Notes under the pieces: model-generated
Databases searched by the model: none
Told to the model about the DNA's origin: nothing
The model's input: the letters and a program-made list of their open reading frames with translations, nothing else
Shown here: one piece after another, positions 682 through 21,556 of the stretch
How positions within the stretch are numbered: position 1 is the stretch's first letter
Layout of the letters: each line of letters starts with the position of its first letter
NCBI GenBank assembly: GCA_018813065.1
Contig: JAHJCH010000114.1
Span: forward strand, 1-38,326
Reading direction: 5' to 3'
Source: Myxococcota bacterium
GTDB taxonomy: Bacteria; Myxococcota_A; Bradymonadia; UBA7976; UBA1532
DNA length: 38,326 nucleotides
Translations under genes and position numbers: made by a program

Positions 682-918
682 GTGCTCATCAGCTTCAACT
701 CCATTCACCGGACCGATCCGGGCTGGTTTGGCCGCTATCTGCTCTGGGAGGGGATGCGCCAGAGCATCACGCTGGAGGTGCTGCGGGAGATGTTCGGGGG
801 GCATATTGAGCGCTATCAGGAGATCTATCGCGCCCAGAGATCGTCGCACGCCTCCCAAGGCCACCGCCGCACCCATCTCGATGGGGGTTTGCTGAACTCA
901 GAGCACGAATCCACCTGA
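682..918 (+). CDS. Possible small ORF in an alternative frame (GTG start uncertain), hypothetical. Peptide ...GWFGRYLLWEGMRQSITLEVLREMFGGHIERYQEIYRAQ...
   Basis: Non-low-complexity peptide with high GC3. Overlaps the tail of the 263..619 ORF in another frame. No credible RBS, so coding status is unresolved. Confidence 0.2.
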   Translation: MLISFNSIHRTDPGWFGRYLLWEGMRQSITLEVLREMFGGHIERYQEIYRAQRSSHASQGHRRTHLDGGLLNSEHEST

Positions 919-977: not shown

Positions 978-1032
978 CAAGAGTGTCGCGATTACGCTTA
1001 CTTAAGGTGGGGTGCTTAAATCACCTGTCCCC
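978..1032. repeat. Left copy of a perfect 55-bp direct repeat (caagagtgtcgcgattacgcttacttaaggtggggtgcttaaatcacctgtcccc) bounding the AT-rich cassette
   Basis: Exact identity with 2692..2746, read directly from the sequence. Confidence 0.9.
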
Positions 1033-1431
1033 TTTGCATTTGATATAGATAACTCCACAAGTATCCAGAATGAGCCATCGACAATTAATACAACCACAAA
1101 CTCTGTCACTATACCAGGTAATACAGTAAGAGAAAGCTCTTCTGTGTTTAATAGATTTCATCAACCGACTATATTAGATATAGATTCATTTATTAATGAT
1201 GGAATTGACCAGTATTTGAGAGAATGGGATTTTGAGGATCAGGATCATATAAATAATAATGGTAATGTTCCATATTGGTATTCCAGAATATACATAGACC
1301 CCTCAAGCAATCTTACATTCCAAGAAGAAATATGTGAAAAATTAGAATTTGATTTCTATCATACTCCAGGCTATATGAATGAAATAAGAAGACAAGATTG
1401 GGCAAAATTCGGAAAAAACTGGAATAAATAA
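1012..1431 (+). CDS. Hypothetical protein (139 aa) encoded in AT-rich DNA. N/T/I-rich with no signal peptide. The only available start is a GTG lying inside the left direct repeat.
   Basis: A 139-codon open frame in roughly 30% GC DNA, where stops are frequent, is unlikely by chance. Composition (N, K, I, Y, T rich) is foreign to the host. No recognisable domain. Confidence 0.45.
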   Translation: MLKSPVPFAFDIDNSTSIQNEPSTINTTTNSVTIPGNTVRESSSVFNRFHQPTILDIDSFINDGIDQYLREWDFEDQDHINNNGNVPYWYSRIYIDPSSNLTFQEEICEKLEFDFYHTPGYMNEIRRQDWAKFGKNWNK

Positions 1432-1451
1432 GGAAAAAAGGGACAAAAAGA

Positions 1452-2450
1452 ATGAAAGAAACACTCTTGATGCTATGTTTAATCATGCTATTTGTATATG
1501 TCGAATCAGCCTGCGCAAATATTATTTTTCTTGAAGATCAAAAGTTGATTGACTATGTAGAATCGGCTAATCTTGATCTATTAAATCAAAAAGATTTAGA
1601 ATATATATCCCAAAGTAAATATTCCTCATATATTTATTTAGAGGAGGCGCTTTACCGAGCATTCTATTGCTTAGACAAGGATACGTGTAAGTATCAACTC
1701 CTAAATAGGCTTCCTAATAAAAATCATGTTTATTTAAACTATGCAATGAATCGAATTCTTGAAAAAATAAATAAAAAAGGAAATATTGAGGAAGAGGACT
1801 ACCGATTTTGTTCAGAATGGTTACTCTATGCTTATATGATCGGCAAAAGAAATGGGGATATCGTTGGTAAAAACAGACCAAATTTTTTTGGTCTATTGAA
1901 AAAATACGACCAAATTAAATTAGAAAATACAGCAAAGCGCTCTAAACTTGCCCAATATTATCGATATTTCGATCAAATCAGTTCTGATTCACCTAAAATT
2001 ATCGATATTTTGATGAGTTTAAATATAGATATGGAAGTTAAGAGATTGCTCTTATCAGAAACGATTAATTTTAATTTTGATTTAAAATCAGAGCGAATTT
2101 ATAATCTTAAAAAGATTAGTATGCATACTATTTTTAATCCCGAAATAAATATAGATCGAAATATTTTAATTGAACATATTAAAATGATGATAAAAATTGC
2201 GGTATCAATCGATGATAACAACTTTCTTAAAGAGATAAAAGATCGTTTAGATGATCTTGAGCTATTTAATTCAAGTAAAGAAATCAGAATTTGCAAACAT
2301 GTCAATGCAGATATAAATGAATTTAACAAATGTATTTATACATATATCGGCCTCAATAGCGAAATAAATCTCCTTAAATACTATCTGAAAAGAGCATACC
2401 TAATGCAGTCATGGTCTAATACATTTGCAAATATGGAAAGGTATCATTGA
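1452..2450 (+). CDS. Hypothetical secreted protein (332 aa), AT-rich, composition-atypical. Predicted signal peptide MKETLLMLCLIMLFVYVESACA.
   Basis: Long ORF in AT-rich DNA starting 21 nt after the previous ORF. N-terminal signal-peptide-like segment. K/N/I/Y-rich, probably helical. No family recognised. Confidence 0.55.
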   Translation: MKETLLMLCLIMLFVYVESACANIIFLEDQKLIDYVESANLDLLNQKDLEYISQSKYSSYIYLEEALYRAFYCLDKDTCKYQLLNRLPNKNHVYLNYAMNRILEKINKKGNIEEEDYRFCSEWLLYAYMIGKRNGDIVGKNRPNFFGLLKKYDQIKLENTAKRSKLAQYYRYFDQISSDSPKIIDILMSLNIDMEVKRLLLSETINFNFDLKSERIYNLKKISMHTIFNPEINIDRNILIEHIKMMIKIAVSIDDNNFLKEIKDRLDDLELFNSSKEIRICKHVNADINEFNKCIYTYIGLNSEINLLKYYLKRAYLMQSWSNTFANMERYH

Positions 2451-2460
2451 TAGAAATACT

Positions 2461-2637
2461 CCCGGCGGAGTAGGTGGCCGGAGTAGGTGGCACCCAGCCG
2501 GAGTAGGTGGCCAGCTGGCGGAGTAGGTGGCCAGCTGGCGGAGTAGGTGGCGGAGTAGGTGGCGGCAGTAGGTGGCTGCACTGGCGGCAGTAGGTGGCGC
2601 GGCAGTAGGTGGCACCCGCGGCAGTAGGTGGCACCCA
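2461..2637. repeat. Array of about 10 short direct repeats: GGAGTAGGTGGC (x6) then GGCAGTAGGTGGC (x4), separated by 0-9 nt spacers
   Basis: Counted directly in the sequence. The array lies between the AT-rich ORFs and the right 55-bp repeat, about 170-350 nt upstream of the NRPS start. Confidence 0.85.
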
Positions 2638-2691
2638 TGTGCTCTTTTGAGTCTTGATACTTATGTTGGCTTTGCTCCAAGCTTGCACGGC

Positions 2692-2746
2692 CAAGAGTGT
2701 CGCGATTACGCTTACTTAAGGTGGGGTGCTTAAATCACCTGTCCCC
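2692..2746. repeat. Right copy of the perfect 55-bp direct repeat
   Basis: Exact identity with 978..1032. Confidence 0.9.
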
Positions 2747-2808
2747 CGCTTGGTCCGCCTCTGCGGAATCTTGTAGGGTGTCGCACTTCACAGGCAACGA
2801 GGCTCCTC

Positions 2809-5800
2809 TTGAGCGAGACGCGCACGGCGCCAGAGCATGACGATCCACCCCTCCCTCTGCCCGCGCTGCGCATCCTCCTCGCCCACCATCGGCGGGCCGA
2901 GCGCGGGGCAGAGACAGACTACAACCTGCCCCAGCTCATCCGGCTCGACGGCCCCCTCGACGTGGCGCGCTTATCCGCGACCCTTGAGCAGCTCATCGCG
3001 CGCCACGACGCCCTCCACAGCCAGATCGTGGCGAAGGGCGGCGCGTGGCGCCTCCAAACGATCACGCCTCCCCCGCTCTCGCTGCGCGCCGAGCCCATCG
3101 CGCGGGGTGAGGCGCGGGCGCGCTTCCAGGCGTTCATCCAGCCCTTCGACTTGGCGACGGCTCCCCTCTCGCGGATCGGGCTGCTGCGCGAGACCCCCAC
3201 CCGCCACTGGCTGATGTGGGATTTTCATCACGCGCTCGTCGATGGGGTCTCGTTGGGTCAAATCTTCGGGGAGATCGGGGCGGGCTACGCGGGGCAGAGC
3301 ATCCCCGCTCCGCGCCTCACCTACGCCGATTTCTGCCGCGACGCCACACGCGAGATCGCCCCACCCCTCAGCCCGCCGCCCTCCCCCATTCCGTGGCTGA
3401 TCGCCCCCTCGCCCCGCGCAGGGATCTTCGTCGAGGCGCTCGATCTCGACGCGGCGCGGCTCGCCCACCTCAAGGCCTCTTCGGCGCGGCTCGGGGTGCG
3501 CTTCACCGCCGTGCTCCTCGAGGGCCTCGGCCGCCTGCTGCGTCGGCTGACGGGCGTCGAGGCGCCGACGATCGGGGTGGTGACCGCAGGGCGCGCGCGG
3601 GCGCGCTTCGAGGGAGTCGTCGGGTGCTTCATCGAGGTCATCCCCGCGCGGATCCCCACGTCGGTGGGCCGCGTCGAGGCCACCTTGGCCGCCGACGCCG
3701 CGCTGACAGAGGGCCTCAACCGCCCCGTCGGCGCAGGCCTCTATGATGTCGTGCTCATCAACCAGGGCTTCCTTGGTCGCGCGGGGCTGCGCCTCGACGG
3801 GCGCGCTCGTCGCGAGGGGCTCGCCCTCACCCCAACGATCATCCGCACGGGCTTGATGGGGGCGACGCTGGCCGTCGAGCTGCTGCCGACCGCCACAGGG
3901 GCGCGCCTGCGCGCGGAGCTGAGCGGGCGCCTCCCCCCCAGCCTGCGCGCCCGCCTCCTGCCCCTCCTCGTGGCGCTCTTGGAGGCCGAGGAGGACACGG
4001 CGCGTTGGCCCACCACCCTCCCTCGCGCCCTCACGGCGGCGCCCGCCCTCGACGGCGGCGATCTGATCGAGGCGCTGCGCGGCTCGGCCCGCCGCCACCC
4101 CGCGCGCGTGGCGCTCGTCACGGCGGCGGGCCGCCTCACCTACGCGGCGCTCTTCGAAGCGGCGGAGGAGATCGCCGAGGCCCTACGCGCCTTCGATCCC
4201 CCGAGCGTGATCCTCGAGGTAGAGGCGCCCGTGGATCGGGTGGCGTTGGCGCTCGGCGCGGCGCTGGCGCGCATCCCCTTTATGTTCATCGAGGATCACC
4301 TCCCCGAGGGCCGCAAGGCCCACCTCCGCGCCCTCCACCCCGGCGGCCTGCGCTTGGAGACCCGCGCTTCATCAAGCTGGAGCCGCCTGCCCGGCGAGGG
4401 TGTACGCCATCCAGGGATCTTGGCCCTCCTGTTCACCTCCGGCAGCACCGGCGCGCCCAAGGCGGTGCGGCTGCGCGCCGAGGCGGCCCTGCGCTACGCC
4501 CGCGCCTTCACCCAGCGCGTCGGCGTCACGCCCGATGATGCGCTCGCCACGCCCGCCTCGTTCATGGTCGATATCGCCCTTGAGGCCCTCCTCGGCGCGC
4601 TCCTCAACGGCGCGGCGCTCTACCCCATCCCCCGCGCGTTGGCCCTCGACGGACAAGCCACCGCCGCCGCGCTGCGACGCGAGGAGATCACCCTCCTCAC
4701 CGCGACCCCCTCTTGGCTGGAGGCGTGCGTGGCGGCGGGCGGCACATTGACGGGGTTGACGATCATCTCGGGGGGGGCGCCGCTGCAGCGCCGCCTCGCC
4801 GTAGAGGGCCTCGCCGGTTGTCGCGTCTTCAACACCTACGGCCCCACCGAGGCCACCATCGCCTGCCTCGCGCATGAGGTCTCCGAGGCTGATCCTGAGC
4901 GCCTCCCGTTGGGGCGGCCCTTGCCGGGGTATCAGATCGTCATCGCCGCGGAGGGGGAGGCGCAGCCTGTGGGGGTCGGCGGGGAGCTGCACATCGGGGG
5001 GCCGCAGTTGAGCGCGGGCTACACCACCCCCGAGGGGCTCGCGCCGCTCAATCTCGTCACGATCCGTGGGGTGGAGGGCGCCCTCTACCCCACCGGGGAT
5101 CTCGCGTGGATGGATCTCGACGGCGTGATCCACTTCGCGGGGCGGCGAGATCGACAGGTCAAGCGGGCGGGGTGGCGCGTGGAGCTGGCCGAGGTGGAGC
5201 GCGTCTTGGCGGCGCGCCCCGACGTCTTGGCGGCGCGCGTCGAGGTCGTCGAGGGCGCGCTCCACGCGTGGATCACCCCCAAGGGCGCCTTCGACCTTGA
5301 GGCGACCCGAGCGGCTCTGCGTCATCACCTCCCCCCCCAGATGCGCCCCTCGGCCCTCTTCGTCAACGGCGCGCGCGCCGCGGAGGGTGGCGCGTCGGCG
5401 ATCCCCGAGGCGCTGCGCCCCCGCCTAGAGGCCCTCTTGCCGCGCTTCGCCGAGGCGCTCGGCGCCGAGATTGGCCCGCACACCGACCTCTTCGAGGCGG
5501 GCGGTGACTCCCTCTCGGCGATGCAGCTCTATGCGGCCCTGAGCGCCGAGTGGGATCTGGAGATCAACGATCTCTTTGAGCACCCCACCCCGCTGGGGAT
5601 CGCCGCGCGGCTGCGCCCCAAGGCCACCGGCGCCGAGCTGGAGGCGCGCCTGCGCGCGATGCTCGAGGTGCCCACCCCGTCCTCACCGTCACACGCGCCG
5701 GTGAACTTCACCCCCTCCACGCCGCTCCAGCGTCGCGCGATCTTGCTCACCGGGGCCACAGGGGACGTGGGCATCCACCTCCTCCGCGCGCTCATCGAGG

Positions 5801-6771
5801 AGACGACGACGCGCGTGTACGTCGGCGTGCGTGGGGGCGTCGAGGCGGGCGGCGCGCGGCTGGCGGCGATCTTCGAGGCCCGCTTCGACGCGCCGCTCGA
5901 TATGGAGCGCGTCACGCTGCTCGACTATGACCTGACGGCGCCCCTCTTGGGGTTGGGCGAGGCGGGCTTCACGGCGTTGGCGCGCGCCTGCGACGGGATC
6001 CTCCACGCCGCCGCCTCCATCAAGCTCGTGGGGCCGCTCGACGCGGCGTTGGCGATCAACCACGCGGGCACCGAGGCCATCCTCGGCCTCCTGGCGCGCA
6101 ACCCCAAGGCCGATCTCTGTTACATCTCGACGACGGCGCTGGATCACCTCGACGGCGCGCCCCACAACCCCTATCTGATCTCCAAGGCGCGGGCCGAGGC
6201 GGCGGTGATGGCGGCCCGTCAGCAAGGCGCGTGGGCCTCGATCTACCGCGTGGGTAACGTGGCCTTCGACGCGGCGACCGGGCGGACACGTCACGACATC
6301 GAGGCGAGCGCCTTCTACCGCTTCCTGCGCGCCGCCCTCGCCACGGGCGCCCTCTTCGATGGACACCGCCCTCTCTTCAACTTCACCTACGCCGATCAGC
6401 TCGCGCGCGGCCTGCTGCGCCTCTGGCATCAACCCACGCTGCTGGGGCGCGACTTCACGTTGAGCAACCCCCATGATCTGAGCCCCCGCCAGCTCCGCGA
6501 GGGGCTGACCCGCGCGGGCTACTCACTGGAGGGGCTGACGCCCGCTGCCTTCGTCGAGGTGTGGGCGCGTCAGCCCGCCACGCGGCGCGGTGATCTCGCC
6601 CTCGCCGCCCACGCGCTGGCGTTGATGGTCGCCGTCTCCCAGCCCGCCTTCCCCAACGCGCGCTCCTGGCTCAAGGCGCTCGACGCCCCCTTCTCCCCCC
6701 CCACCGCGGCGCACCTCCGACGCATGGTCGATCACTGCGTCGCGCGTGGCTTCTTCGAGGCCCCCGCATGA
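2809..6771 (+). CDS. Single-module nonribosomal peptide synthetase (C-A-PCP-R) with a terminal thioester reductase domain. 1320 aa, TTG start assumed.
   Basis: C-domain HHxxxDG (MWDFHHALVDG, nt ~3226-3246). A-domain cores A3 LFTSGSTGAPKAV (nt ~4426-4464), A5 NTYGPTE, A7 YPTGDLA and A8 GRRDRQVKRAGWRVEL. PCP motif GGDSLSAMQL (nt ~5497-5517). C-terminal NAD(P)-binding TGATGDVG (nt ~5751-5775) plus YLISK (YxxxK), typical of R domains. Confidence 0.9.
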   Translation: MSETRTAPEHDDPPLPLPALRILLAHHRRAERGAETDYNLPQLIRLDGPLDVARLSATLEQLIARHDALHSQIVAKGGAWRLQTITPPPLSLRAEPIARGEARARFQAFIQPFDLATAPLSRIGLLRETPTRHWLMWDFHHALVDGVSLGQIFGEIGAGYAGQSIPAPRLTYADFCRDATREIAPPLSPPPSPIPWLIAPSPRAGIFVEALDLDAARLAHLKASSARLGVRFTAVLLEGLGRLLRRLTGVEAPTIGVVTAGRARARFEGVVGCFIEVIPARIPTSVGRVEATLAADAALTEGLNRPVGAGLYDVVLINQGFLGRAGLRLDGRARREGLALTPTIIRTGLMGATLAVELLPTATGARLRAELSGRLPPSLRARLLPLLVALLEAEEDTARWPTTLPRALTAAPALDGGDLIEALRGSARRHPARVALVTAAGRLTYAALFEAAEEIAEALRAFDPPSVILEVEAPVDRVALALGAALARIPFMFIEDHLPEGRKAHLRALHPGGLRLETRASSSWSRLPGEGVRHPGILALLFTSGSTGAPKAVRLRAEAALRYARAFTQRVGVTPDDALATPASFMVDIALEALLGALLNGAALYPIPRALALDGQATAAALRREEITLLTATPSWLEACVAAGGTLTGLTIISGGAPLQRRLAVEGLAGCRVFNTYGPTEATIACLAHEVSEADPERLPLGRPLPGYQIVIAAEGEAQPVGVGGELHIGGPQLSAGYTTPEGLAPLNLVTIRGVEGALYPTGDLAWMDLDGVIHFAGRRDRQVKRAGWRVELAEVERVLAARPDVLAARVEVVEGALHAWITPKGAFDLEATRAALRHHLPPQMRPSALFVNGARAAEGGASAIPEALRPRLEALLPRFAEALGAEIGPHTDLFEAGGDSLSAMQLYAALSAEWDLEINDLFEHPTPLGIAARLRPKATGAELEARLRAMLEVPTPSSPSHAPVNFTPSTPLQRRAILLTGATGDVGIHLLRALIEETTTRVYVGVRGGVEAGGARLAAIFEARFDAPLDMERVTLLDYDLTAPLLGLGEAGFTALARACDGILHAAASIKLVGPLDAALAINHAGTEAILGLLARNPKADLCYISTTALDHLDGAPHNPYLISKARAEAAVMAARQQGAWASIYRVGNVAFDAATGRTRHDIEASAFYRFLRAALATGALFDGHRPLFNFTYADQLARGLLRLWHQPTLLGRDFTLSNPHDLSPRQLREGLTRAGYSLEGLTPAAFVEVWARQPATRRGDLALAAHALALMVAVSQPAFPNARSWLKALDAPFSPPTAAHLRRMVDHCVARGFFEAPA

Positions 6772-9122
6772 GCACGCGCTTCTTCGAGTGGACCCTTCAG
6801 CGCCGCGCGTGGCTGCTCCTCGGCGCGGCGCTCCTCCTCATCCCCCTCCTCCTCGGGGCGCTGCGCGCGCGCCTCGACTTCGACGTAGAGCGCTACTTCC
6901 CCGACGGCGACGTGGAGATCGAGCGTCTCCACGCGCTCCAAGATCGCTTCGGCGCCAGCGGCCCCGCGATCCTCACTTGGCGCCAAGCCGGGGGGTTCTC
7001 TGACGCGGACCTGCCCGCCCTCGCCTCGGCGGCGCGGATCTTCGAGGCGGAGGGGCTTGAGGGGATCTCGTGGATCGGCTCGGTGATGCGGCGCTACGCG
7101 CTGGACTCCCTTGAGGATCTCTTCGAGGACGAGGGGGACAACCCGCTCTACGAGGGGCTCTTGTGGAGCGCGGATCGCGAGACGGTGGTCTTCACCGGGC
7201 GGCTCCCCGCCGCGCGGGATCATGACGATGGGCGGCGCGCGCTGAACACAACGCTGACGGCGGCGCTGGCGTCGCTGGAGATGGAGGGGCGGACGCTGAC
7301 GCTCAACGGCGAGCCCATCCTCCGCGCGCGCTACCTTGAGATGATGGCGGTGGATCAGGTCAACCTCATCGGCGGCGGGGTCCTGCTCACCTTCCTCATC
7401 ATGCTGCTCGTGACGCGCAGTGTCGCCCACTCGCTCTTGACCCTCGCGGCCGTGATCCCCGCCTATCTGCTCGTGCTGACGGTCCTGGCGCTGACAGGGC
7501 GCCCCGTGACAGCGGTGATGTCGATGCTGCCCATCATCCTGCTCGTGGTGGGCCTCTCGGACACGATCCACATCCTCACCCCGCTGAGGGCGCCGCGCGG
7601 AGAGGTTGGCTGGCGCGCGCACATCGCGCGGACCTTCGCGGAGATCGCCCGCCCCTGCCTCTTCACCAGCTCCGTGACGGCGTTGAGCTTCGCGACGCTG
7701 GTGACGGCGGGGGTGGGCATCATCGTGGACTTCGCGCTGGCGACGGCGCTGGGGATCTGGGCGACCTTCGCCTTCTCCATGCTCCTCTTCCCCCCGCTCC
7801 TCAGCCTCCAGCGCGAGAAGGCCGTGGTGGCGCGGCCGACGCCGCGCGCGGTGACGTGGCTGTTGGGGCTCGGCGCGCGGCGGCCCAAACAGGTCCTGGC
7901 CCTCTTCACCCTCAGCGCGGCGGCGGCTGCGGCCTTCGCGCCGCAGACCCAGATCGAGGGCCACATCCTCAACGATCTCCACGATGGGGCCCCGCTCAAG
8001 GAGGATCTGCGCCGCATCGAAAAGCAGGGCTTCGGCGTCTTTCGCGTCAACATCGTCCTCGACGGCGCGCGCGCCCCGCTCTCCCCCGAGCTGCTCGACT
8101 TCAACGATGAGATCGCCCGCTTCGCCCGCGCCTTCGGCGCCTCAGCGAACTCTTCGAGTTCACTTCGTCTCGGGCGCGCAGCGCCCGGCGAGGAGAAATC
8201 CAAAGGATTTATCCGAGGGGGCGAAGCCCCACGTTCTTGGCCTGCTTCGCGGTCCAATTCATCGCGTACCACGCCGCAGGTCATCAAGGCGTTGACCCTC
8301 AATGACTTCATCGGCGAGGCGCTCAACCTGCGCGGGATCCCCTTCACGGCCCAGACGCGCGCCCGCCTCGACTTCTCCGAGGTCGAGGCGGCGCTGCGCG
8401 AGGCAGGCCGCGACGGGGATGGGCCACGGCTCCTCTACGATCCCGAGACCGGCTCAAGCCAGATCCTCCTCTTCGTCGAGGACGTCGGCTCCGAGGTGAT
8501 GCGACCTCTCCTCGCCGAGCTGGACGCCCTGGCGCGCCGCGCGGGTGGATCGATGGCGCCGCACGTGACGGGGACAGTGTGGCTGACAGAGCGCACCTAT
8601 GCGGCGCTCGTTGGTGACTTCACGCGCTCCCTCGGCGTGGCGGTGGTGATGATCTTCGCGATGCTCTGGCTCGTCGGCCGCTCATTGCCCCTCGCGCTCC
8701 TCGGCCTCATCCCCAACTTCTACCCGCTCCTCGCGCTCCTGGGGGTGATCGGGGCCACCGGCTACACCCTCAGCCCTGTCTCGCTGCTCATCTTCACCGT
8801 CGCCTTCGGGCTCGTCGTCAATGACACCGTGCATATCCTCAGTCGGGTCGCGCTGGCGCGGCGCGCTGGGCGTGAAGGGGCCGCCCTCATCCATGAGGTC
8901 ATGGCGATCTTGGGCAAGGCGATCATGACGACCACGCTCGTCCTCGCCGTGGGCTTCGTCGTGATGACGCGCTCTGCGTTTCAGACGATCTTCGATATGG
9001 GCTTTTTGATCCCCACCGCGCTTGTCTTCGCCCTCCTCGCCGACGTGATCTTGCTGCCCGCGCTCTACATCACCGCCGGGCGTTGGGTGGCGCCTCCGGC
9101 GCCTCGGGCTCATGTTGCGTGA
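6768..9122 (+). CDS. MMPL/RND-superfamily membrane exporter (784 aa)
   Basis: The start overlaps the NRPS stop (ATGA). Two blocks of about 5-6 hydrophobic helices (aa ~190-340 and ~610-770), each preceded by a soluble domain. GLSDTIHIL-type motif. Architecture matches MmpL/HpnN-like lipid transporters. Confidence 0.65.
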   Translation: MSTRFFEWTLQRRAWLLLGAALLLIPLLLGALRARLDFDVERYFPDGDVEIERLHALQDRFGASGPAILTWRQAGGFSDADLPALASAARIFEAEGLEGISWIGSVMRRYALDSLEDLFEDEGDNPLYEGLLWSADRETVVFTGRLPAARDHDDGRRALNTTLTAALASLEMEGRTLTLNGEPILRARYLEMMAVDQVNLIGGGVLLTFLIMLLVTRSVAHSLLTLAAVIPAYLLVLTVLALTGRPVTAVMSMLPIILLVVGLSDTIHILTPLRAPRGEVGWRAHIARTFAEIARPCLFTSSVTALSFATLVTAGVGIIVDFALATALGIWATFAFSMLLFPPLLSLQREKAVVARPTPRAVTWLLGLGARRPKQVLALFTLSAAAAAAFAPQTQIEGHILNDLHDGAPLKEDLRRIEKQGFGVFRVNIVLDGARAPLSPELLDFNDEIARFARAFGASANSSSSLRLGRAAPGEEKSKGFIRGGEAPRSWPASRSNSSRTTPQVIKALTLNDFIGEALNLRGIPFTAQTRARLDFSEVEAALREAGRDGDGPRLLYDPETGSSQILLFVEDVGSEVMRPLLAELDALARRAGGSMAPHVTGTVWLTERTYAALVGDFTRSLGVAVVMIFAMLWLVGRSLPLALLGLIPNFYPLLALLGVIGATGYTLSPVSLLIFTVAFGLVVNDTVHILSRVALARRAGREGAALIHEVMAILGKAIMTTTLVLAVGFVVMTRSAFQTIFDMGFLIPTALVFALLADVILLPALYITAGRWVAPPAPRAHVA

Positions 9123-9145
9123 CCTCTCGACGCCCGAGGCCCATC

Positions 9146-10090
9146 ATGATGCCCATCATGGACAGCCCATTCTCCGCCAAGCTTAAGCGGCTCCGCCGCA
9201 ACCTCAGCCTGCGGGGGGTCTTTCTCCTCCTCGCCTTGGGCGTCATCTTGCCCGCGCTCGCCTCCACCTCGGTGGGCATCGTCGCCCTCGTCATCGGCGA
9301 GGGCGACGACGATCTCGTCATCGGGGTGCTGGTCGTCTCCTTCACCGCCGTGGCGATCGGCGCGTCCGTCGCCGCCACGATCCTGCTCGGCGTGCGCGCC
9401 CGCACCGCCCGACTCCAAGCGGATCTGCTGGCCAACGTCAGCCACGAGCTGCGTACGCCCCTGGCGGTCATCCGGATGTACGCCCAGACGCTCCAGCACA
9501 AGCGCTTCGAGCGCCCCGAGCAGGAGGAGGCCTGCGTGGAGACCATCATCCGAGAGACGGAGCGGCTTGAGGCGATGATCCAGCGCGTGCTGACGTGGCG
9601 GGCCGCCGCCAAGGATCGAGACGTCGCGGCGATCGAGCGCGCGCCGCTGAGCCCGACGGTGGCGCAGGCCATCGCTCGCTTCCAGCGGATGCTGGCGCCC
9701 GGAGAGGTGGAGCTGGACGTCGAGCTCGACGCGGAGGTCCAAGCGCGGCACGATCCCCATCAAATCACAGAGTCGGTGCTCAACCTCTTGGTCAACGCGC
9801 ATAAATACACACGATCGCCGCGCCGCGTGCGCGTGCGCACCCTACTTCAAGGTGAGATGGCCGCCATCGTCGTCGAGGACAACGGCGTGGGGATCCCTCA
9901 CGCGGAGATCAAGCGGATCTTCGATCCCTTCTATCGCGTGCAGCGGACGAATCACAAAGCCGCGGGCGCGGGCCTGGGGCTGGCGATCGTCCGTCATATC
10001 GCCAAGGTGCATGGGGGGCAGATCCTCGTAGAGAGCGAGGTGGGGGTGGGCAGCGCCTTCACCCTCCAGATCCCGGGGGCGGCGCCATGA
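9146..10090 (+). CDS. Sensor histidine kinase (HisKA + HATPase_c) with two N-terminal TM helices and essentially no extracytoplasmic domain
   Basis: H-box ANVSHELRTPLAVI, N-box LNLLVNAHKYT, G1 DNGVGIP and G2 GAGLGLAIV. An alternative GTG start at 9083 would overlap the MMPL gene. Confidence 0.85.
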   Translation: MMPIMDSPFSAKLKRLRRNLSLRGVFLLLALGVILPALASTSVGIVALVIGEGDDDLVIGVLVVSFTAVAIGASVAATILLGVRARTARLQADLLANVSHELRTPLAVIRMYAQTLQHKRFERPEQEEACVETIIRETERLEAMIQRVLTWRAAAKDRDVAAIERAPLSPTVAQAIARFQRMLAPGEVELDVELDAEVQARHDPHQITESVLNLLVNAHKYTRSPRRVRVRTLLQGEMAAIVVEDNGVGIPHAEIKRIFDPFYRVQRTNHKAAGAGLGLAIVRHIAKVHGGQILVESEVGVGSAFTLQIPGAAP

Positions 10091-10764
10091 GCGAGACGAT
10101 CTTGGTGATCGAAGACGAAGACGCGCTCCGCGAGGGGTTGGGCTTGAACCTTCGCCTCGCGGGCTATGAGGTGCGCCTCGCCCCCGATGGGATGACGGGG
10201 CTAGGGCTGGTGGTGGAGCTGAGCCCCGCCTTGCTCGTGCTGGATATGATGCTGCCGGATCTGGATGGCCTGGAGATCATCGACACCCTGCGTGGGCAGG
10301 GGGATGATGTGCCGATCTTGGTGTTGTCGGCGCGGAGCACGACGGAGGATAAGATCGAGGGGCTGAAGCTGGGGGCGGATGATTATCTATCTAAACCTTT
10401 CGAGCTGTCCGAGCTGCTGGCGCGGGTGGAGGCGATGCTGCGCCGCCGTCGTGCGCGCGTGCGAGAGCGCTTGTGCTTCGGTGAGATCTGCATTGATATG
10501 GAGGCGCGGGAGGTGACACGGGCAGATGAGGTGGTGGCGCTGTCGGCCAAGGAGTTTAATCTATTGTATTTATTGGCGCGTTCGCCTGGTCGGACTTTTA
10601 GTCGGGAGCTGATCTTGGATCGCGTCTGGGGCTGGGGCTTTGAGGGGACCAGCCGGACGGTCAATAATTTTATATTGAGCTTGCGGCATAAGCTGGAGGA
10701 TAACCCCAAGCGGCCGCGACATATCAAGACGGTGCGGCAGGTGGGGTATAAGCTCGTTCGATAA
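10087..10764 (+). CDS. OmpR/PhoB-family response regulator (receiver + winged helix)
   Basis: Start overlaps the HK stop (ATGA). Receiver motifs (LVLDMMLPDLDG, SARSTTEDKIEGLKLGADDYLSKPF). C-terminal trans_reg_C signature (...RTVNNFILSLRHKLE...VRQVGYKL). Confidence 0.9.
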   Translation: MSETILVIEDEDALREGLGLNLRLAGYEVRLAPDGMTGLGLVVELSPALLVLDMMLPDLDGLEIIDTLRGQGDDVPILVLSARSTTEDKIEGLKLGADDYLSKPFELSELLARVEAMLRRRRARVRERLCFGEICIDMEAREVTRADEVVALSAKEFNLLYLLARSPGRTFSRELILDRVWGWGFEGTSRTVNNFILSLRHKLEDNPKRPRHIKTVRQVGYKLVR

Positions 10765-14859: not shown

Positions 14860-14991
14860 AAGATTGGCCGCAATGTTGCGCCATCAAGGGCAAGGACAAT
14901 TGCATCAAATGATTTAATTTCAATATCTTAGCTGACTTAATGGTCACGCCGCGCGCCCCGAAGATTTCTCCCGCATGACGATTCACCTTTC

Positions 14992-15009
14992 TTTCTAAAT
15001 TTTCTAAAC
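14992..15009. promoter_or_regulatory. Tandem TTTCTAAA(T/C) direct repeat in the AT-rich divergent intergenic region between the HDOD gene and the XRE regulator. Candidate operator.
   Basis: Two adjacent 9-nt repeats, 58 nt upstream of the XRE start, in a local GC trough. Confidence 0.3.
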
Positions 15010-15066
15010 TGACGTCTGGACGCAGCCGTTAGGGCGTAAATATCTCCAAGGGATAATGGGGGAGCT

Positions 15067-15501
15067 ATGCAACAGCAGACGAGCTTTGGGCAGATTCTAT
15101 ATCGACGACGCAAGGAGCTTGGGCTCACGCAGAGCCAGCTGGCCAGGATGATTGGCGTGCAGCCTAACTACATAGTTTATCTAGAGAAAGGTGAGCGCCA
15201 CCCCTCGGATCGTACGGTCAAAAAGGTGGCCGTGGCGCTTGAGCTTGATAAGGGAGAGCTGTTCCTCGCGGCGAATCCACAGGTGCGCGACTTTCTAAAC
15301 GTAGATGAGGATAACGTGATCCACCACGAGTACTTGCCCATCGGGCTTAAAGCGCTCTTGGAGGATGATGATCTATGCAATTTATTTGATATTACTGGCG
15401 AAGAAATCGCACTTTTGGCGAAAATTCGCTTTGATGGGCGTGTGACAGAAGCTCAACAGTACTTATCTCTCCTATTAAATATAAGATATATCTTCTCTTA
15501 G
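15067..15501 (+). CDS. XRE (Cro/C1)-family helix-turn-helix transcriptional regulator (144 aa)
   Basis: N-terminal HTH_3 signature (LGLTQSQLARMIGVQPNYIVYLEKGERHPSDRTVKKVAVALEL). The C-terminal third has lower GC. Confidence 0.75.
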   Translation: MQQQTSFGQILYRRRKELGLTQSQLARMIGVQPNYIVYLEKGERHPSDRTVKKVAVALELDKGELFLAANPQVRDFLNVDEDNVIHHEYLPIGLKALLEDDDLCNLFDITGEEIALLAKIRFDGRVTEAQQYLSLLLNIRYIFS

Positions 15502-16602: not shown

Positions 16603-19600
16603 GTGATAGATCAGATCCCCCTTCTTGGGCTCACGCTCTTATTGGCCGCGCCCCCCCCCGCGCCCATCCCTCGCCCCGGCGCGGGTGAGTCGGAGGCGGT
16701 CATCGAGGTTCAAGGCTTTGGCCGCTACGCCATTCAAGCGCAGAGCCCACGCGGCGCCACTGTGCGGCTCCTTGATCGCATGACCGGCCTCAGCGCGCCC
16801 GCCGGTGAGGTGGGCCGCGTCGATGGTCGCCTCGATGTCTTCCTTGAGCGCGGCGAATATAAGATCGTCACCCAAGGGCCGGCGGATGAGCAGGGCCAGA
16901 CCCTCTTGCACGTCCGGCCCTTCTCCGAGCGCGGCGCCGATCAAGCCCTCGTGGAAGGCCAACCCCTCACCACCGCTTTGGATGATCTTGAGTCGCTGAG
17001 CTATTGGCTGGAGCTGCCCCTCCCCAAGCGCGTCACCCTGGAGGCCGCCGGGCGAAACCTGGAGACCCTGCGCTTGTGGCGCGATGGGGCTTGGCTCGAT
17101 CCCAACACCCCTCAGTGCGCGGTGATCTCCCCCACCCCCACACAGCCCCTCAAGCGCTGCCGCTTCTCCGCGCAGCTGCCCGCCGGGCTCTATCGCCTCA
17201 GCCTCTACGGCGGCCCCAGCCAGCCCTGGACCACCGCCAGCGACGCCCACCCGCTGCACCTGCGCTGGGGCATCCCGCGCCTGGGCGCAGAGGGCTACAG
17301 CGCCCAGGTCATCAGCGCCTTCGGCGAGGACCTCTTCATCGCCCCCTCCGGCGCTGATCGCTTTGAGCTGTGGCTGAGCCAACCCGCGCCCATCGCCTTT
17401 AAGGTTGAGCGCCTCTGGAATCAGCCCTTCGGCGATCCCGAGCGGGCGCTCAGCGCCCTGAGCCCCCAGGCGCGCGTGCCGACGTTGAGCCTCTATGAGG
17501 GCAGCGACGCCGAGCGCTTGGTCACGGTGCAAGGTCAGCCCGGTCAGGGCTATCGCCTCTGGCGTTATGAGGAGGCCTATACACAAGGCGCCCTCAGCCG
17601 CGACGGCGATTTCTTCTTCTCGTTGATCCCCGCCGCGCCCCTCGCCGACGTCATCGACGTCACCTTGCTCCTCTGGCAGCAGACCGAGGCGGGCGCCAAG
17701 GAGATCGCCGCGCAGCTCATCGAGATCGGGCCAGGTCGCGCTTATCAGGGCCGCTTTAACGTCGAGGGCGAGGTCAGCTTGCTCATCGATGTGTTGGCGC
17801 GTGGCAGCTACCCCTTCTATGCGGAGGGCGCGCGCTTTCAGCTCAAGCCGCTGGTGATGGATGAAGAGGCGCCGTTTGAGCTGGCGCCCTTCGCCGAGAA
17901 GCGCCTGGAGGAGCTGGAGGCGGGCCGCTACGTCTTGACCCTCAAGAGCGACGCGCCGCAGGCGGTGGCGCTGCGGATCGGCCTGGGCGCGCCGACCCCG
18001 ACCCGAGGCGTGGCCCAGATCCCCCAGCTCCACCTGGAGGGGGGCACGAGCCTCTACTTCCGCGCCGGCGAGACGGGCGCCCGCTTCGCCAAGCACCTGC
18101 GGCGGCTGCCCCTCGATCTGGAGTCGGCGCTGCCCTTGGTGCTCTTGCCCGGCGAGACGATCGAGCTGCCCATCGCCCCCAAGGTGGCGGGCGTCATCAA
18201 CGCCTTGGCCGTTGAGGGCGCGGCCCAGCTCTCCCTCGACGGCGGGCCTTGGCGCGCCGAGGTGACCGCCGCCCCCGGCGCGGCGCGGCTGCGCGTCCGC
18301 AGCGCTGCGCCCACCTCCGCCCTCTTCAGCCTCGCCCTTACCCCCGCGCTTCAAGCCCTCAAGGCCCCCACCACGCGCCCTGAGCCCCTGGTGGGGATCA
18401 AGCTGGGCGCGCCGCTGGCCTTCGCCGTGACGCCCAACACGCCCTACACCCGCAAGGTGGAGATCGACGCGCCGGGCTTCTACATCGTCGAGAGCGCGGG
18501 GCTGCTGAGCGTCCGTGGGCAGCTGCGCACCCGCACCCGCCCTGAGCTGGCCACCAACACCGGCGGCGGCCCGGGCGGCAACGCCTGGCTCTCCGCCTTC
18601 CTGCGCCCCGGCGACTACGCCGTGACCTACACCCCCCAAGGCCGCTCCGCCGGTGACATGAGCGCCCGCGTGCGCGCCGCCACGCTCATCGAGGCGGGCG
18701 CCTTGGTCGATGGTCGCCCCGCCCGCGTGGAGATCCCCGCCGACGCCGTGGCCCGCTTCACCTTTGAGATCCCGACGGCGGGGCGCTGGCGCGTGGAGGC
18801 CTTTGGCCTGGGGCAGACCCTCCTCTGCCGCGTCGAGGACGAGGCGGGCTGGCCCATCGGCGCCGTCGATGGCCCCTGTGATCGCGCCCTCGATCTCAAG
18901 GCGGGCCGCTACGCCCTGCTCTTGCCCGCCAAGCGCGTGGAGATCACCGCCCAAGCGCGCATCAGCCGCGTCCTCGACGCGCTGACCGTCAAGGGGCATG
19001 GGCCGCACGCCGTGGCCTTGGGCGCCTCCGTTGAGGCCCTCTGGCGTGAGTCGCCGCAGCGCGAGCCGGATGTGTGGACCTTTAGCCTCCCCGCGCCGGA
19101 TGAGATCACCCTCAGCCTCGGCGACGCCATGATGGGCCAGCTCCTCGACGCCCAAGGCGCCCTCATCGCGCCCATCCACCCCGGCCAAGCCCTCAAGCGC
19201 GCGCTGCCGATGGGGGATTACCGCCTTGAGATCCGCGCCCGTCGCCGCGATGACTTCCGCGCCTATACGCTCGATTTACGCAGCGAGGCGCTCTTAGCGG
19301 GGCAGACGCGCGAGGTGGAGGTGCTCAAGTCCAAAACGCTCAGCGTCTCCATCGGCGAGGCCGGGCGCTATGTCTTCTCCTCCTTCGGCCAAGCGGATCT
19401 GATGGCCCACCTCTACGACGCCCAGGGCGCGCTGATCGCGCATAACGATGATCGCCCGCTGGACTGGAACTTCCGCCTCTCCGCCCAGCTCAACCCTGGG
19501 CGTTATCGCTTGGAGATCGAGGACTTCGAGGAGCGCGAGCCCTGGGCGTGGCGCTGGGAGGCGCCCAAGGAGGCGCGCGTGGAGCTGCGCCGCGTCACCC

Positions 19601-21555
19601 CACGCCCCGGCCCCGCGCTGCCCCCCAACGCGCCCCTCACCGCGCCGATCGCCGATGACGCGTCGAGCCACCTCTTCGCTCTCGATGGCCTGCGCCCCGG
19701 CTTGATCGAGGTGGAGGTGCGCGGCGGCGAGGCGCTGGAGGTGGCCTTGGATGCCCAAGGGCCGCGTGGCTGGGCGGAGATCGCCGCCACGCAGGGGGTC
19801 CACGTGCAGTTTAAGGCGCTGACGACCCCTGGCGCGGCGCATCGCCTGCGCGTCTCCTCGATGGATCTGCGCGGCGCGCCGGCGACGATCTCTTGGCGCG
19901 CGGTCCAGGTCCCCCGCGTCGAGGCGGCCCGCTTGGCGCGGACCCCGACGACGGCGGACGGCGCCTATGTGGTCACGCCGCCGGGCCTGTGGCGGCTCTC
20001 TCGCGCCGATAACGTGCTGGTCTGCGACAGCCTGCCTGGCGCCTGCGCGGCGCCCACCTCCACGCTCATCTACACCCAAGGCGGCGGCCTGTTCTTGCTC
20101 GGCGAGGGCCTCACCGCCGCCCCCGTGGTGCTGGCTGAGGGGGAGGGCCTCAAGGTCAACGCGCCGGGGCCACGGCGCCTGGGGGTGGCCGCCTCTGAGG
20201 GCGCGCCTCGTGTCCTCATCGCCCGCGCCTCGGGGGGCCGCCCGCTCCTGGCCTTTGGTCCTAAGCCGACCATGCCCGGCGCCGTCAGCGCCAACGGCGC
20301 CCTGGCCGTCGATCCTCAAGGGGGCGCCACGGAGGCGATCCTCTGGCCCGCCACCGGCGAGGTGGCCACGGCCACGCTGCGCCTCACGCCCCTGCGCGCC
20401 TTGCCCTCACGCGCCGTGGCCTTGGGCGCGGTGGATCTCAACGTCCCGCCGCGCGCCGCGCTGCGCTTGACGCCCCCGCGAGGGCGGCTGCGCTTTGAGC
20501 TGAGCTTGTCCGAGGGCTTGGCCGCCGAGGCGCTGGCCCTGCACTGGGCCGACGGCGCGGCTTTGCATATCCAAGGCGAGCTTGAGGGCGCGCTGACCCT
20601 CTACAACCCCACCGAGGCCCCAGGCCGTGTTGCTCTGTCGCTACGCGAAGCGCTACGCGGGGAATGCAAGGCGCCCTGCGCCGCGCCCATCGCCGTGGGC
20701 CGCCCGCTGGCGGAGGTGCTCTTGAGCGCCGGGCGCTACGCCGCGTCGATCCCCGCCGCCGAGGCGGGCGTCACCCTCCACGCGCGCGGCGGCGCGGCGC
20801 GCTACCTCCGCCATGATGGCCGCCTCTTCGACGGCGACGCCGCCCCCGTTGGCCCCGGCGGCGTGCTGCTCATCGAGCACGCCCCCGGCTCGATCTTCGC
20901 GTGGATCGAGGCCCAGCCCGGCGCGGGCCCCTGGCCGCAAGCCGAGGCGCCGCCGAGGGCGATCACCAGCCCCACGCGCTTGGAGCTTGAGGACGCCGCG
21001 CGCCTACAGCTCGACGTCGGCGGCCCCGCCCTCCTCCACGTCCGCGCCCATGGCACGCTCGCCGCCCGCGTGCAGACACAGGGCGGGCGCGCTGACACCG
21101 CGCTCGTCAACGGCGCCTTTGATCGCTGGCTGCCGACGGGGCAGGCCGAGATCCACCTCCGCGCCCTGCCGCGCGGCCCCCTCGGCGTGGTGGACATCAG
21201 CCACAGCCCCGCCGTGGCGCTCCAAGAGGGCGTCGGCCCCCAGGCGCTGCTGCGCCCCGGTGAGCGCCGCGCCTACACCCTCAGCCTCAGCAGGCCCCGC
21301 ACCATCGGCTTCGGCCTGCGCGCCGACGCCGATCGCGTCACGCTGGAGATCCGCCGCCCTGACGGGACGCTCATCGCTGAGGGTCTGGCCCAGATGACCG
21401 CGCTGGAGGCCGGGGACTATATCCTGCTCCTCCACCTCCCCCCCGAGGGCAGGCCCACCCGCGTGCGGCCCGTCGTCTTGGGGCTGACGCCCCCCGAGGC
21501 GGTGCCCCCAGACGTGATCGAGTCCTATCAGCAGCAAGCACAAGGAGGTGACTGA
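16603..21555 (+). CDS. Giant secreted protein (1650 aa) built from repeated PPC-like (pre-peptidase C-terminal type) beta-sandwich modules. No catalytic domain recognised.
   Basis: GGAGG RBS 7 nt before a GTG start. Signal peptide MIDQIPLLGLTLLLAAPPPAP. Recurrent module signatures: G(R/D)Y(R/A/V)L..., DLMAHLYDAQGALIAHNDDR and LLDAQGALIAPIHPG...GDYRLEIRA. The stop lies 1 nt before the A2M start. Confidence 0.8.
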   Translation: MIDQIPLLGLTLLLAAPPPAPIPRPGAGESEAVIEVQGFGRYAIQAQSPRGATVRLLDRMTGLSAPAGEVGRVDGRLDVFLERGEYKIVTQGPADEQGQTLLHVRPFSERGADQALVEGQPLTTALDDLESLSYWLELPLPKRVTLEAAGRNLETLRLWRDGAWLDPNTPQCAVISPTPTQPLKRCRFSAQLPAGLYRLSLYGGPSQPWTTASDAHPLHLRWGIPRLGAEGYSAQVISAFGEDLFIAPSGADRFELWLSQPAPIAFKVERLWNQPFGDPERALSALSPQARVPTLSLYEGSDAERLVTVQGQPGQGYRLWRYEEAYTQGALSRDGDFFFSLIPAAPLADVIDVTLLLWQQTEAGAKEIAAQLIEIGPGRAYQGRFNVEGEVSLLIDVLARGSYPFYAEGARFQLKPLVMDEEAPFELAPFAEKRLEELEAGRYVLTLKSDAPQAVALRIGLGAPTPTRGVAQIPQLHLEGGTSLYFRAGETGARFAKHLRRLPLDLESALPLVLLPGETIELPIAPKVAGVINALAVEGAAQLSLDGGPWRAEVTAAPGAARLRVRSAAPTSALFSLALTPALQALKAPTTRPEPLVGIKLGAPLAFAVTPNTPYTRKVEIDAPGFYIVESAGLLSVRGQLRTRTRPELATNTGGGPGGNAWLSAFLRPGDYAVTYTPQGRSAGDMSARVRAATLIEAGALVDGRPARVEIPADAVARFTFEIPTAGRWRVEAFGLGQTLLCRVEDEAGWPIGAVDGPCDRALDLKAGRYALLLPAKRVEITAQARISRVLDALTVKGHGPHAVALGASVEALWRESPQREPDVWTFSLPAPDEITLSLGDAMMGQLLDAQGALIAPIHPGQALKRALPMGDYRLEIRARRRDDFRAYTLDLRSEALLAGQTREVEVLKSKTLSVSIGEAGRYVFSSFGQADLMAHLYDAQGALIAHNDDRPLDWNFRLSAQLNPGRYRLEIEDFEEREPWAWRWEAPKEARVELRRVTPRPGPALPPNAPLTAPIADDASSHLFALDGLRPGLIEVEVRGGEALEVALDAQGPRGWAEIAATQGVHVQFKALTTPGAAHRLRVSSMDLRGAPATISWRAVQVPRVEAARLARTPTTADGAYVVTPPGLWRLSRADNVLVCDSLPGACAAPTSTLIYTQGGGLFLLGEGLTAAPVVLAEGEGLKVNAPGPRRLGVAASEGAPRVLIARASGGRPLLAFGPKPTMPGAVSANGALAVDPQGGATEAILWPATGEVATATLRLTPLRALPSRAVALGAVDLNVPPRAALRLTPPRGRLRFELSLSEGLAAEALALHWADGAALHIQGELEGALTLYNPTEAPGRVALSLREALRGECKAPCAAPIAVGRPLAEVLLSAGRYAASIPAAEAGVTLHARGGAARYLRHDGRLFDGDAAPVGPGGVLLIEHAPGSIFAWIEAQPGAGPWPQAEAPPRAITSPTRLELEDAARLQLDVGGPALLHVRAHGTLAARVQTQGGRADTALVNGAFDRWLPTGQAEIHLRALPRGPLGVVDISHSPAVALQEGVGPQALLRPGERRAYTLSLSRPRTIGFGLRADADRVTLEIRRPDGTLIAEGLAQMTALEAGDYILLLHLPPEGRPTRVRPVVLGLTPPEAVPPDVIESYQQQAQGGD

Positions 21556-21556
21556 G

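Follow-up and report, generated by a model that had tools for sequence, protein, structure and literature searches.

How did two AT-rich genes come to stand between perfect copies of a 55-bp sequence, in the leader of a nonribosomal peptide synthetase (NRPS) operon of a GC-rich bacterium? The question is raised by contig JAHJCH010000114.1 (assembly GCA_018813065.1), referred to here as the window: 38,326 nt, the entire contig of a metagenome-assembled genome (MAG) of an uncultured member of the Myxococcota from a deep-groundwater biofilm at Äspö. An AT-rich block is situated in the intergenic leader that separates a small host gene from an operon for a C-A-T-R NRPS and an MMPL transporter. After it come 231 bp of GC-rich, host-like DNA with a tandem array, and the 55-bp sequence, termed V, brackets the whole. 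The block is compositionally foreign and is physically joined to the myxobacterial locus. Its foreign origin is clear, and it is a lone orphan islet, found in one uncultured species and lacking both relatives and any machinery that could be demonstrated. The insertion looks like a one-off horizontal acquisition, and the reading that we tentatively favour is a repair or template-switch event in which a foreign fragment was captured once and 55 bp of host leader were duplicated. The features within the bracket, including two open reading frames (ORFs), are the following.

978 to 1032, no strand: V copy 1, the left exact 55-bp direct repeat, 50.9% GC, with an AAGG Shine-Dalgarno (SD)-like motif and the GTG (1012) that opens ORF1.
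1012 to 1431, plus strand: ORF1, 139 aa, an orphan, with its GTG start in V and its first 7 codons from V.
1033 to 2460, plus strand: the foreign AT-rich block, 1,428 bp, 29.2% GC, which starts in frame within ORF1 (at codon 8) and ends 10 nt past the ORF2 stop.
1452 to 2450, plus strand: ORF2, 332 aa, an orphan, with a hydrophobic N-terminus (MKETLLMLCLIMLFVYVESAC) and predicted to be all-helical.
2464 to 2636, plus strand: a GC-rich degenerate tandem array of six CGGAGTAGGTGGC units and then four GGCAGTAGGTGGC units, in one orientation, at a spacing of 12-22 nt.
2630 to 2653, plus strand: a weak terminator-like hairpin (2630-2643) and T-run at the array end, a consensus match only.
2637 to 2691, no strand: a spacer of 55 unique nt between the array and V copy 2, without similarity to the 55 nt preceding V copy 1.
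2692 to 2746, no strand: V copy 2, the right exact 55-bp repeat, which ends 62 nt upstream of the NRPS start.

V is an exact 55-mer, CAAGAGTGTCGCGATTACGCTTACTTAAGGTGGGGTGCTTAAATCACCTGTCCCC, and its two copies lie 1,714 nt apart from start to start; the perfect direct repeat reported in a preliminary description of this DNA is thus real at the sequence level. The repeat is maximal, since the neighbouring bases differ on both sides, and when the four flanks are aligned, their scores stay within the range obtained by shuffling. No third copy is present in the window at up to three mismatches (chance expectation 0.00, and none in shuffles). Inside the bracket, positions 1033-2460 have a GC content of 29.2%, against 68.1% for the remaining contig, and GC at third codon positions (GC3) is 0.24 for ORF1 and 0.26 for ORF2, against 0.90 for the adjacent NRPS, which bears out the earlier impression of a foreign composition. 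The preliminary description had treated the whole bracketed segment of about 1.66 kb as AT-rich. This holds for 1,428 of its 1,659 bases, but not for the 231-bp tail at 2461-2691 (64.9% GC), which had been overlooked.

An exact 55-bp repeat in a metagenomic contig raises the possibility of an artefact: V would occur once in the chromosome and also in a separate circle of 1,714 nt or in an unrelated genome, and a loop in the graph would have been worked into the contig by the assembler. Such a loop, at a single k-mer vertex, would look exactly like the observed structure; 55 is the default final k of metaSPAdes, and a SPAdes k=55 loop was the first suspicion. The window contig was assigned, through matching samples and a pattern of three MAGs, to the FSGD (Fennoscandian Shield Genomic Database) assemblies, a re-assembly made with MEGAHIT 1.1.1 (k-min 21, k-max 141, step 12) from reads of about 2x151 nt (PMC8275790). 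FSGD cluster 180 (Myxococcota, class UBA4248, family UBA1532, about 65% GC) comprises three MAGs, from a modern-marine co-assembly, a modern-marine glass biofilm and an old-saline glass biofilm (PMC8275790); three NCBI assemblies carry this NRPS at >99% identity, which is the same pattern. The MEGAHIT k list runs 21, 33, 45, 57 … 141 and does not include 55. MEGAHIT contigs are unitigs, in which only k-mers from reads that exceed 55 nt can carry the sequence across a repeat of that length. The same gene order is found in a second MAG, in a 37,999-nt contig (accessions MBU1431421-26: upstream lipoprotein, 78-aa gene, ORF1, ORF2, NRPS, MMPL transporter), and the NRPS haplotypes of the two MAG assemblies with the integrated order differ at four residues. 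The contig of the third MAG, JAHJGJ010000308.1, breaks inside the NRPS gene and is uninformative for the insertion. As MEGAHIT crossed both V copies in two assemblies, the alternative joins expected of a circle or an empty site are implied to be absent or minor in those libraries.

The junction was also recovered in independent Logan assemblies (k=31). The assembly of SRR2544012, an 'old saline, glass' biofilm from borehole KF0069A01 of the Äspö Hard Rock Laboratory (PMC5364579), contains both ORFs. One contig from this run (L001) and one from SRR2544004, which represents a different borehole (L006), begin with the last 30 nt of V (positions 26-55, corresponding to k-1) and run into the AT-rich DNA. 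Both have 0 mismatches to the window, L001 differing solely by missing array units. In each of the two runs another contig (L004, L005) has the same 30-mer of V at its start and continues into the NRPS. Contigs at k=31 break at V and cannot phase it, which is a point in favour of an artefact. However, two libraries show the AT-rich DNA in physical continuity with 30 nt or more of the myxobacterial leader, and a chimera with an unrelated organism, or chance sharing of this sequence by an unrelated AT-rich genome, is therefore excluded. The k list, the second MAG with its different NRPS haplotype and the junction in two Logan libraries together rule out the SPAdes loop, and they run counter to the assembly chimera that had been raised among the initial possibilities. 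The insertion is a genuine, reproducibly assembled chromosomal structure; a chimera is very unlikely, and a graph loop threaded into the contig by the assembler is extremely improbable.

ORF1 and ORF2, whose lengths of 139 and 332 aa agree with those first described, are co-directional and together fill the AT-rich block. The open frame around ORF2 spans 340 codons, whereas 2,000 shuffles of the block gave none longer than 162, and ORF2 is accordingly regarded as a real gene; at NCBI it is KKF91_12855 of 'Myxococcota bacterium'. Its N-terminus, read by eye, has a classical n-h-c segment ending ESA/C, which suggests that the product is a secreted protein or lipoprotein. ORF1 does take its GTG start from the left repeat, as had been proposed: the next in-frame start is codon 45, and the GTG at 1012, in the arrangement AAGG-N4-GTG, is the only start available. 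Codons 8-44 would be open by accident with a chance of 0.034, and thus ORF1 is either 5'-truncated at the junction or starts natively in V. For both proteins, only self-matches were found among 5.8 billion clusters (word-indexed search) and among 1.84 billion representatives (full HMMER). Nothing significant was found in Pfam, NCBIfam, PHROGs, PADLOC or PDB, and nothing in IMG/VR, or in plasmids and phages by tblastn or blastn. Single-sequence AlphaFold (AF2) models were unusable and of too low a quality for searching by fold, with a predicted local distance difference test (pLDDT) score of 41 for ORF2 and 38 for ORF1. It had been proposed to check whether the nearest matches of the two proteins lie in amoebozoa, Bacteroidota or Firmicutes, but as both lack homologues no donor lineage can be named, be it prey, eukaryote-like, Bacteroidota or Firmicutes. 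Our guess is that the two genes are cargo that the host could do without, and that their expression, if there is any, depends on host signals lying upstream of V copy 1.

Which process could have placed such a block in the leader? No transposase or integrase was found in the insert (Pfam, NCBIfam, PHROGs) or in the 38-kb window. The best end-to-end inverted alignment is within the shuffled range and the repeat search reports no inverted ends, and the window has no tRNA or tmRNA, the insertion site being intergenic. V has neither an imperfect palindrome nor the RYYYAAC/GTTRRRY cores of attC, and no intI or attI was found in the window. The flanking duplication is 55 bp, against about 2-15 bp for a transposon target-site duplication, so the earlier objection that it is too long for a transposase holds. 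In the absence of a transposase or integrase, inverted ends, a tRNA and an attC-like structure, the insertion is not an insertion sequence (IS) or transposon, a prophage, an integrative and conjugative element (ICE) or an integron cassette, in agreement with the initial assessment that it has no standard structure. The integron cassette offers some likeness, being small and promoter-less, with one or two orphan genes, repeated boundary sites and often an atypical composition; it differs in its attC palindrome and cores and in the intI and attI that the window lacks, and exact repeats are not expected between the attC sites of different cassettes. IS200/IS605, considered because of the sizes of the two genes (139 and 332 aa), was rejected for want of family support, as were IS110, a retron and a toxin-immunity orphan cassette.

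A repair or template-switch event is favoured because the ends of the foreign block are arbitrary (the first gene has no start of its own, and the block ends just past the second gene), because the composition of V (51% GC) and of the 231-bp tail (65% GC) resembles that of the host, because there are no mobility genes and because neither V nor the cargo has relatives. A random foreign fragment, rather than a self-mobile element, would have been captured once. A break or collapsed fork in the leader may have been repaired by end joining or template switching, with the fragment inserted and 55 bp of the leader re-copied. The re-copying could have come about through a staggered break or a 'return upstream of the departure point' event, or through a templated filler of local origin, for which the V situated 286 nt downstream was copied. 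The first gene of the fragment would have lost its 5' end and would now be read from the SD-like AAGG and the GTG that happen to lie in V copy 1, and the second gene, probably encoding the secreted protein or lipoprotein, would be intact. V copy 2 and the 62-nt leader would keep the immediate upstream context of the NRPS unchanged. Two histories are taken together here. In the first, V was duplicated at insertion, and the predicted empty site consists of left flank, V and right flank. In the second, the array, spacer and V are native and a 55-nt templated filler was inserted together with the foreign block, so that the predicted empty site would read left flank, array, spacer, V and right flank.

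Filler DNA of nonhomologous end joining (NHEJ), fork stalling and template switching (FoSTeS) and microhomology-mediated break-induced replication (MMBIR) are processes that give complex insertions with flanking duplication, mostly in eukaryotic and experimental bacterial systems. The present insertion resembles these in its arbitrary fragment ends (the truncated first gene), in having no mobility genes and no microhomology-independent signals, in a target duplication of arbitrary length and in a possible second host-like piece. Unlike it, they are rarely documented in natural bacterial genomes; the duplication of 55 nt is long, and the repair pathway here is putative.

Several points weigh against a repair-mediated capture. 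No empty site was recovered in a scan for a 27-mer of V in GTDB representative genomes, JGI metagenomes and IMG/VR, there is no orthologous NRPS locus, and the left-flank proteins have no record in Logan. Shuffled versions of V have an in-frame start in 46% of cases, and an in-frame start with an SD-like motif, as defined ad hoc, in 4.8%, which fits somewhat better with a native start of ORF1 in V. Where long, perfect direct repeats surround an island, they are classically att sites. Simple capture leaves the GC-rich array within the bracket unexplained, unless the array is native to the host or was captured as a second piece. Finally, a duplication of 55 nt generated by repair and flanking foreign DNA is not known to us from any documented case in bacteria, although no exhaustive search for one was made.

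The resemblance to att sites leads to a different history, in which a 1,714-bp circle (V, AT-rich genes, array and spacer) recombined with a chromosomal V by a Campbell-type crossover, leaving a non-autonomous cassette. We consider this doubtful, while still a history to be reckoned with. The same level of doubt attaches to its catalyst, a tyrosine or serine recombinase acting in trans, or RecA on 55 bp of homology, with V as the att identity segment. The empty site that it predicts (left flank, V, right flank) is the same as for duplication of V at insertion. The exact 55-bp direct repeats flank both ends of the insert, as attL and attR would, although an att role for them is putative. Their length is typical of att identity segments (in pSAM2, about 58 bp), as found in the phages and integrative plasmids of high-GC bacteria, and they also resemble these segments in perfection and in that the element-borne copy restores the sequence beside the target gene. 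The ten same-orientation AGTAGGTGGC repeats that make up the array lie 55-230 nt from V and could be (putative) arm-type binding sites, and in circular permutation V provides ORF1 with its SD motif and GTG. On the other side, the att-bearing elements of high-GC bacteria have int/xis beside attP and target tRNA genes, whereas neither an int gene nor a tRNA is present here, and an unseen recombinase would be required for an insert without an integrase of its own or in the 38-kb window. The insert sits in an intergenic leader instead of a tRNA or the end of a gene; V has no convincing core-type inverted repeats, the best being 5-6 nt; no relatives of V, of the array context or of the cargo were found in any collection scanned; and the joins of a circle or empty site are absent or minor where MEGAHIT ran through both V copies in two assemblies.

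The absence of an integrase is not in itself foreign to att-bearing structures. Cis-mobilizable elements (CIMEs) are decayed remnants of ICEs or of integrative and mobilizable elements (IMEs); they keep attL and attR and lack integration and transfer genes (PMC5704250). The likeness of the insert to them is confined to flanking repeats, of putative att nature, without integration or transfer genes, its cargo lying between long perfect direct repeats. It differs from CIMEs in that no cognate integrase or ICE is known, in its target (an intergenic leader rather than a tRNA or gene 3' end), in its size of 1.7 kb, far below that of described CIMEs, in a first gene that reads in from the repeat and in having no relatives. 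A more specific version would be a very small (1,714-bp) non-autonomous integrative cassette of an undescribed kind, in which V serves as att site, ribosome-binding site and start codon, the ten AGTAGGTGGC cores are arm sites and a recombinase in trans targets operon leaders; orphan genes for secreted proteins would thereby be placed under host control, and the leader of the downstream operon regenerated. Taken jointly, these claims are unlikely.

The SD motif and start codon in V point in another direction. If V is foreign, a 1,769-bp linear copy of a 1,714-bp circle or concatemer, or of terminally redundant DNA, may have been inserted between 977 and 2747 by illegitimate recombination. The 55-bp repeat would then be the overlap of the copy, the host would never have had V, and the empty site would consist of left flank and right flank alone. 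Such an origin explains the perfect identity of the copies and their arbitrary length without a special enzyme. It is the best account of the SD motif and start, found together in only 4.8% of shuffled V, since V would be the native 5' end of ORF1. In circular permutation it also gives a two-gene operon with the array upstream, an order seen in small replicons that bear iterons. The likeness to a minimal iteron replicon consists of the ten direct repeats, this gene order and the 1.7-kb unit. However, the spacing of the ten AGTAGGTGGC cores is irregular (12-22 nt), and the repeats are GC-rich while the genes are AT-rich. In an AT-rich replicon one would expect the non-coding DNA to be AT-rich as well, whereas V and the 231-bp tail are host-like at 51% and 65% GC. 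Neither ORF matches a Rep, HUH or partition family, and tblastn against plasmids found nothing; the signal-peptide-like start of ORF2 is ill-suited to a replication protein. We regard an over-length copy of a circle as distinctly unlikely.

The array itself varies. In L001, the SRR2544012 contig, it is shorter by one 20-nt and one 19-nt unit; as the 19-nt repeat is shorter than k=31, this loss is probably a true copy-number polymorphism between samples. L001 ends at 2653, 38 nt before V copy 2 and just past the weak hairpin, and no repeat in the window accounts for a k=31 branch there. A blastn search with 2440-2810 against plasmids and phages gave only marginal chance matches to the array and no vector sequence. 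A scan of metagenomes and IMG/VR for three successive AGTAGGTGGC units was discarded as an ill-chosen pattern: its 58 loci were all unrelated perfect tandem repeats that contain the 10-mer.

If V is part of the host leader, what is its role? The features on either side are the following.

682 to 918, plus strand: the upstream host gene KKF91_12845, 78 aa, whose stop precedes V copy 1 by 59 nt; two NCBI MAGs contain the exact protein, its accession being consecutive with those of ORF1, ORF2 and the NRPS.
2726 to 2776, plus strand: a candidate upstream ORF of 16 codons, VLKSPVPRLVRLCGIL followed by a stop, which would use the same GTG of V as the ORF1 start and end 33 nt before the NRPS start.
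2809 to 6771, plus strand: the NRPS gene, a single C-A-T-R module of 1,320 aa, with the MMPL transporter gene next at 6768-9122.

The right repeat does end 62 nt upstream of the NRPS, which begins with TTG at 2809; GAGG lies 6 nt upstream of this start, which yields the 1,320-aa product annotated at NCBI. The 'NRPS operon' of the preliminary description stands as to the NRPS, although it comprises only one C-A-T-R module, followed by the MMPL transporter, a histidine kinase and an OmpR-type regulator (2809-10764). V had also been taken as the probable NRPS leader or promoter. A promoter scan gave no sigma-70-like match in V, scans for Rfam families, tRNAs, promoters and terminators gave nothing significant in or around it, and its palindromes are only 5-6 nt long, so that the promoter claim is unsupported; V may be a leader or 5' untranslated region (5'UTR). 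The heptamer GTGTCGC, with a purine-rich 5' context, occurs in V (983-989 and 2697-2703) and again in the NRPS leader (2779-2785), 82 nt downstream of its occurrence in V copy 2; this recurrence could be a regulator site or chance, with about 0.17 expected for a 7-mer.

V could also be a dispersed host repeat, either a repetitive extragenic palindromic (REP)-like or miniature inverted-repeat transposable element (MITE)-like module or a regulatory one, with the cassette lying between two copies or moved by homologous recombination. The examined region is only 38 kb of the genome, and the GTGTCGC of V recurs in the right flank. Against this, a search for further copies, one of the checks initially proposed, recovered only the two in the window, and no exact match of the 27-mer in GTDB representatives, JGI metagenomes or IMG/VR. 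Perfect identity over 55 nt with sharp edges would also be unusual for dispersed repeats, and this origin is very improbable.

The host locus is itself lineage-specific. The closest NRPS among 5.8 billion protein clusters is 30% identical, and in GTDB representatives the only relatives are 30% matches in Novosphingobium; there is thus no orthologous locus in other species. Within the MMPL gene, the Logan contigs of three runs (L004, L005, L066-L068) all break within 8158-8187, which points to a graph branch caused by a repeat elsewhere in the genome or by a structural polymorphism. Strains that are near-identical (99.7-99.98%) occur in biofilm libraries of two hydrologically separate boreholes, the modern-marine KA2198A and the old-saline KF0069A01, and NRPS haplotypes are mixed within the libraries of each. 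Presence of the strain in both boreholes could reflect a coloniser of the flow cells, carry-over on beads or equipment, or index bleed.

Further along the window, a second atypical patch is found at 14860-15501 (46-48% GC), with a gene for a 144-aa XRE-type helix-turn-helix (HTH) protein at 15067-15501 that is kept in all assemblies of the strain. At 21548-29583 (plus strand), a 1,900-aa bacterial alpha-2-macroglobulin (bMG10, A2M_BRD, MG2) is immediately followed by a PBP1C-type transglycosylase/transpeptidase with BiPBP_C, the known A2M-PbpC pair; directly upstream of the alpha-2-macroglobulin gene is a 1,650-aa ORF without a Pfam domain (16603-21555, plus strand). An 851-aa protein at 29725-32280 (plus strand) matches Pfam MVP_shoulder (E 3.9e-25) and Vault_3 (E 1.7e-11) and is thus major-vault-protein-like, in a bacterial contig.

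The insertion is best regarded as a horizontally acquired islet between direct repeats, in an unusual variant. For the reading of MAGs, it means that a SPAdes k=55 artefact should not be assumed automatically wherever a contig has an exact 55-bp repeat, and that the assembler and independent assemblies need to be checked. If V is a functional att site, the locus would be an unusually small, trans-mobilised cassette that targets operon leaders, and of interest for the field of integrative elements. If the islet was acquired by repair-mediated capture, it would be a natural snapshot of a high-GC bacterium wiring in foreign orphan genes without mobile-element machinery, with the duplicated leader supplying a start codon and the downstream operon keeping its leader: a useful example, though not a surprising one.

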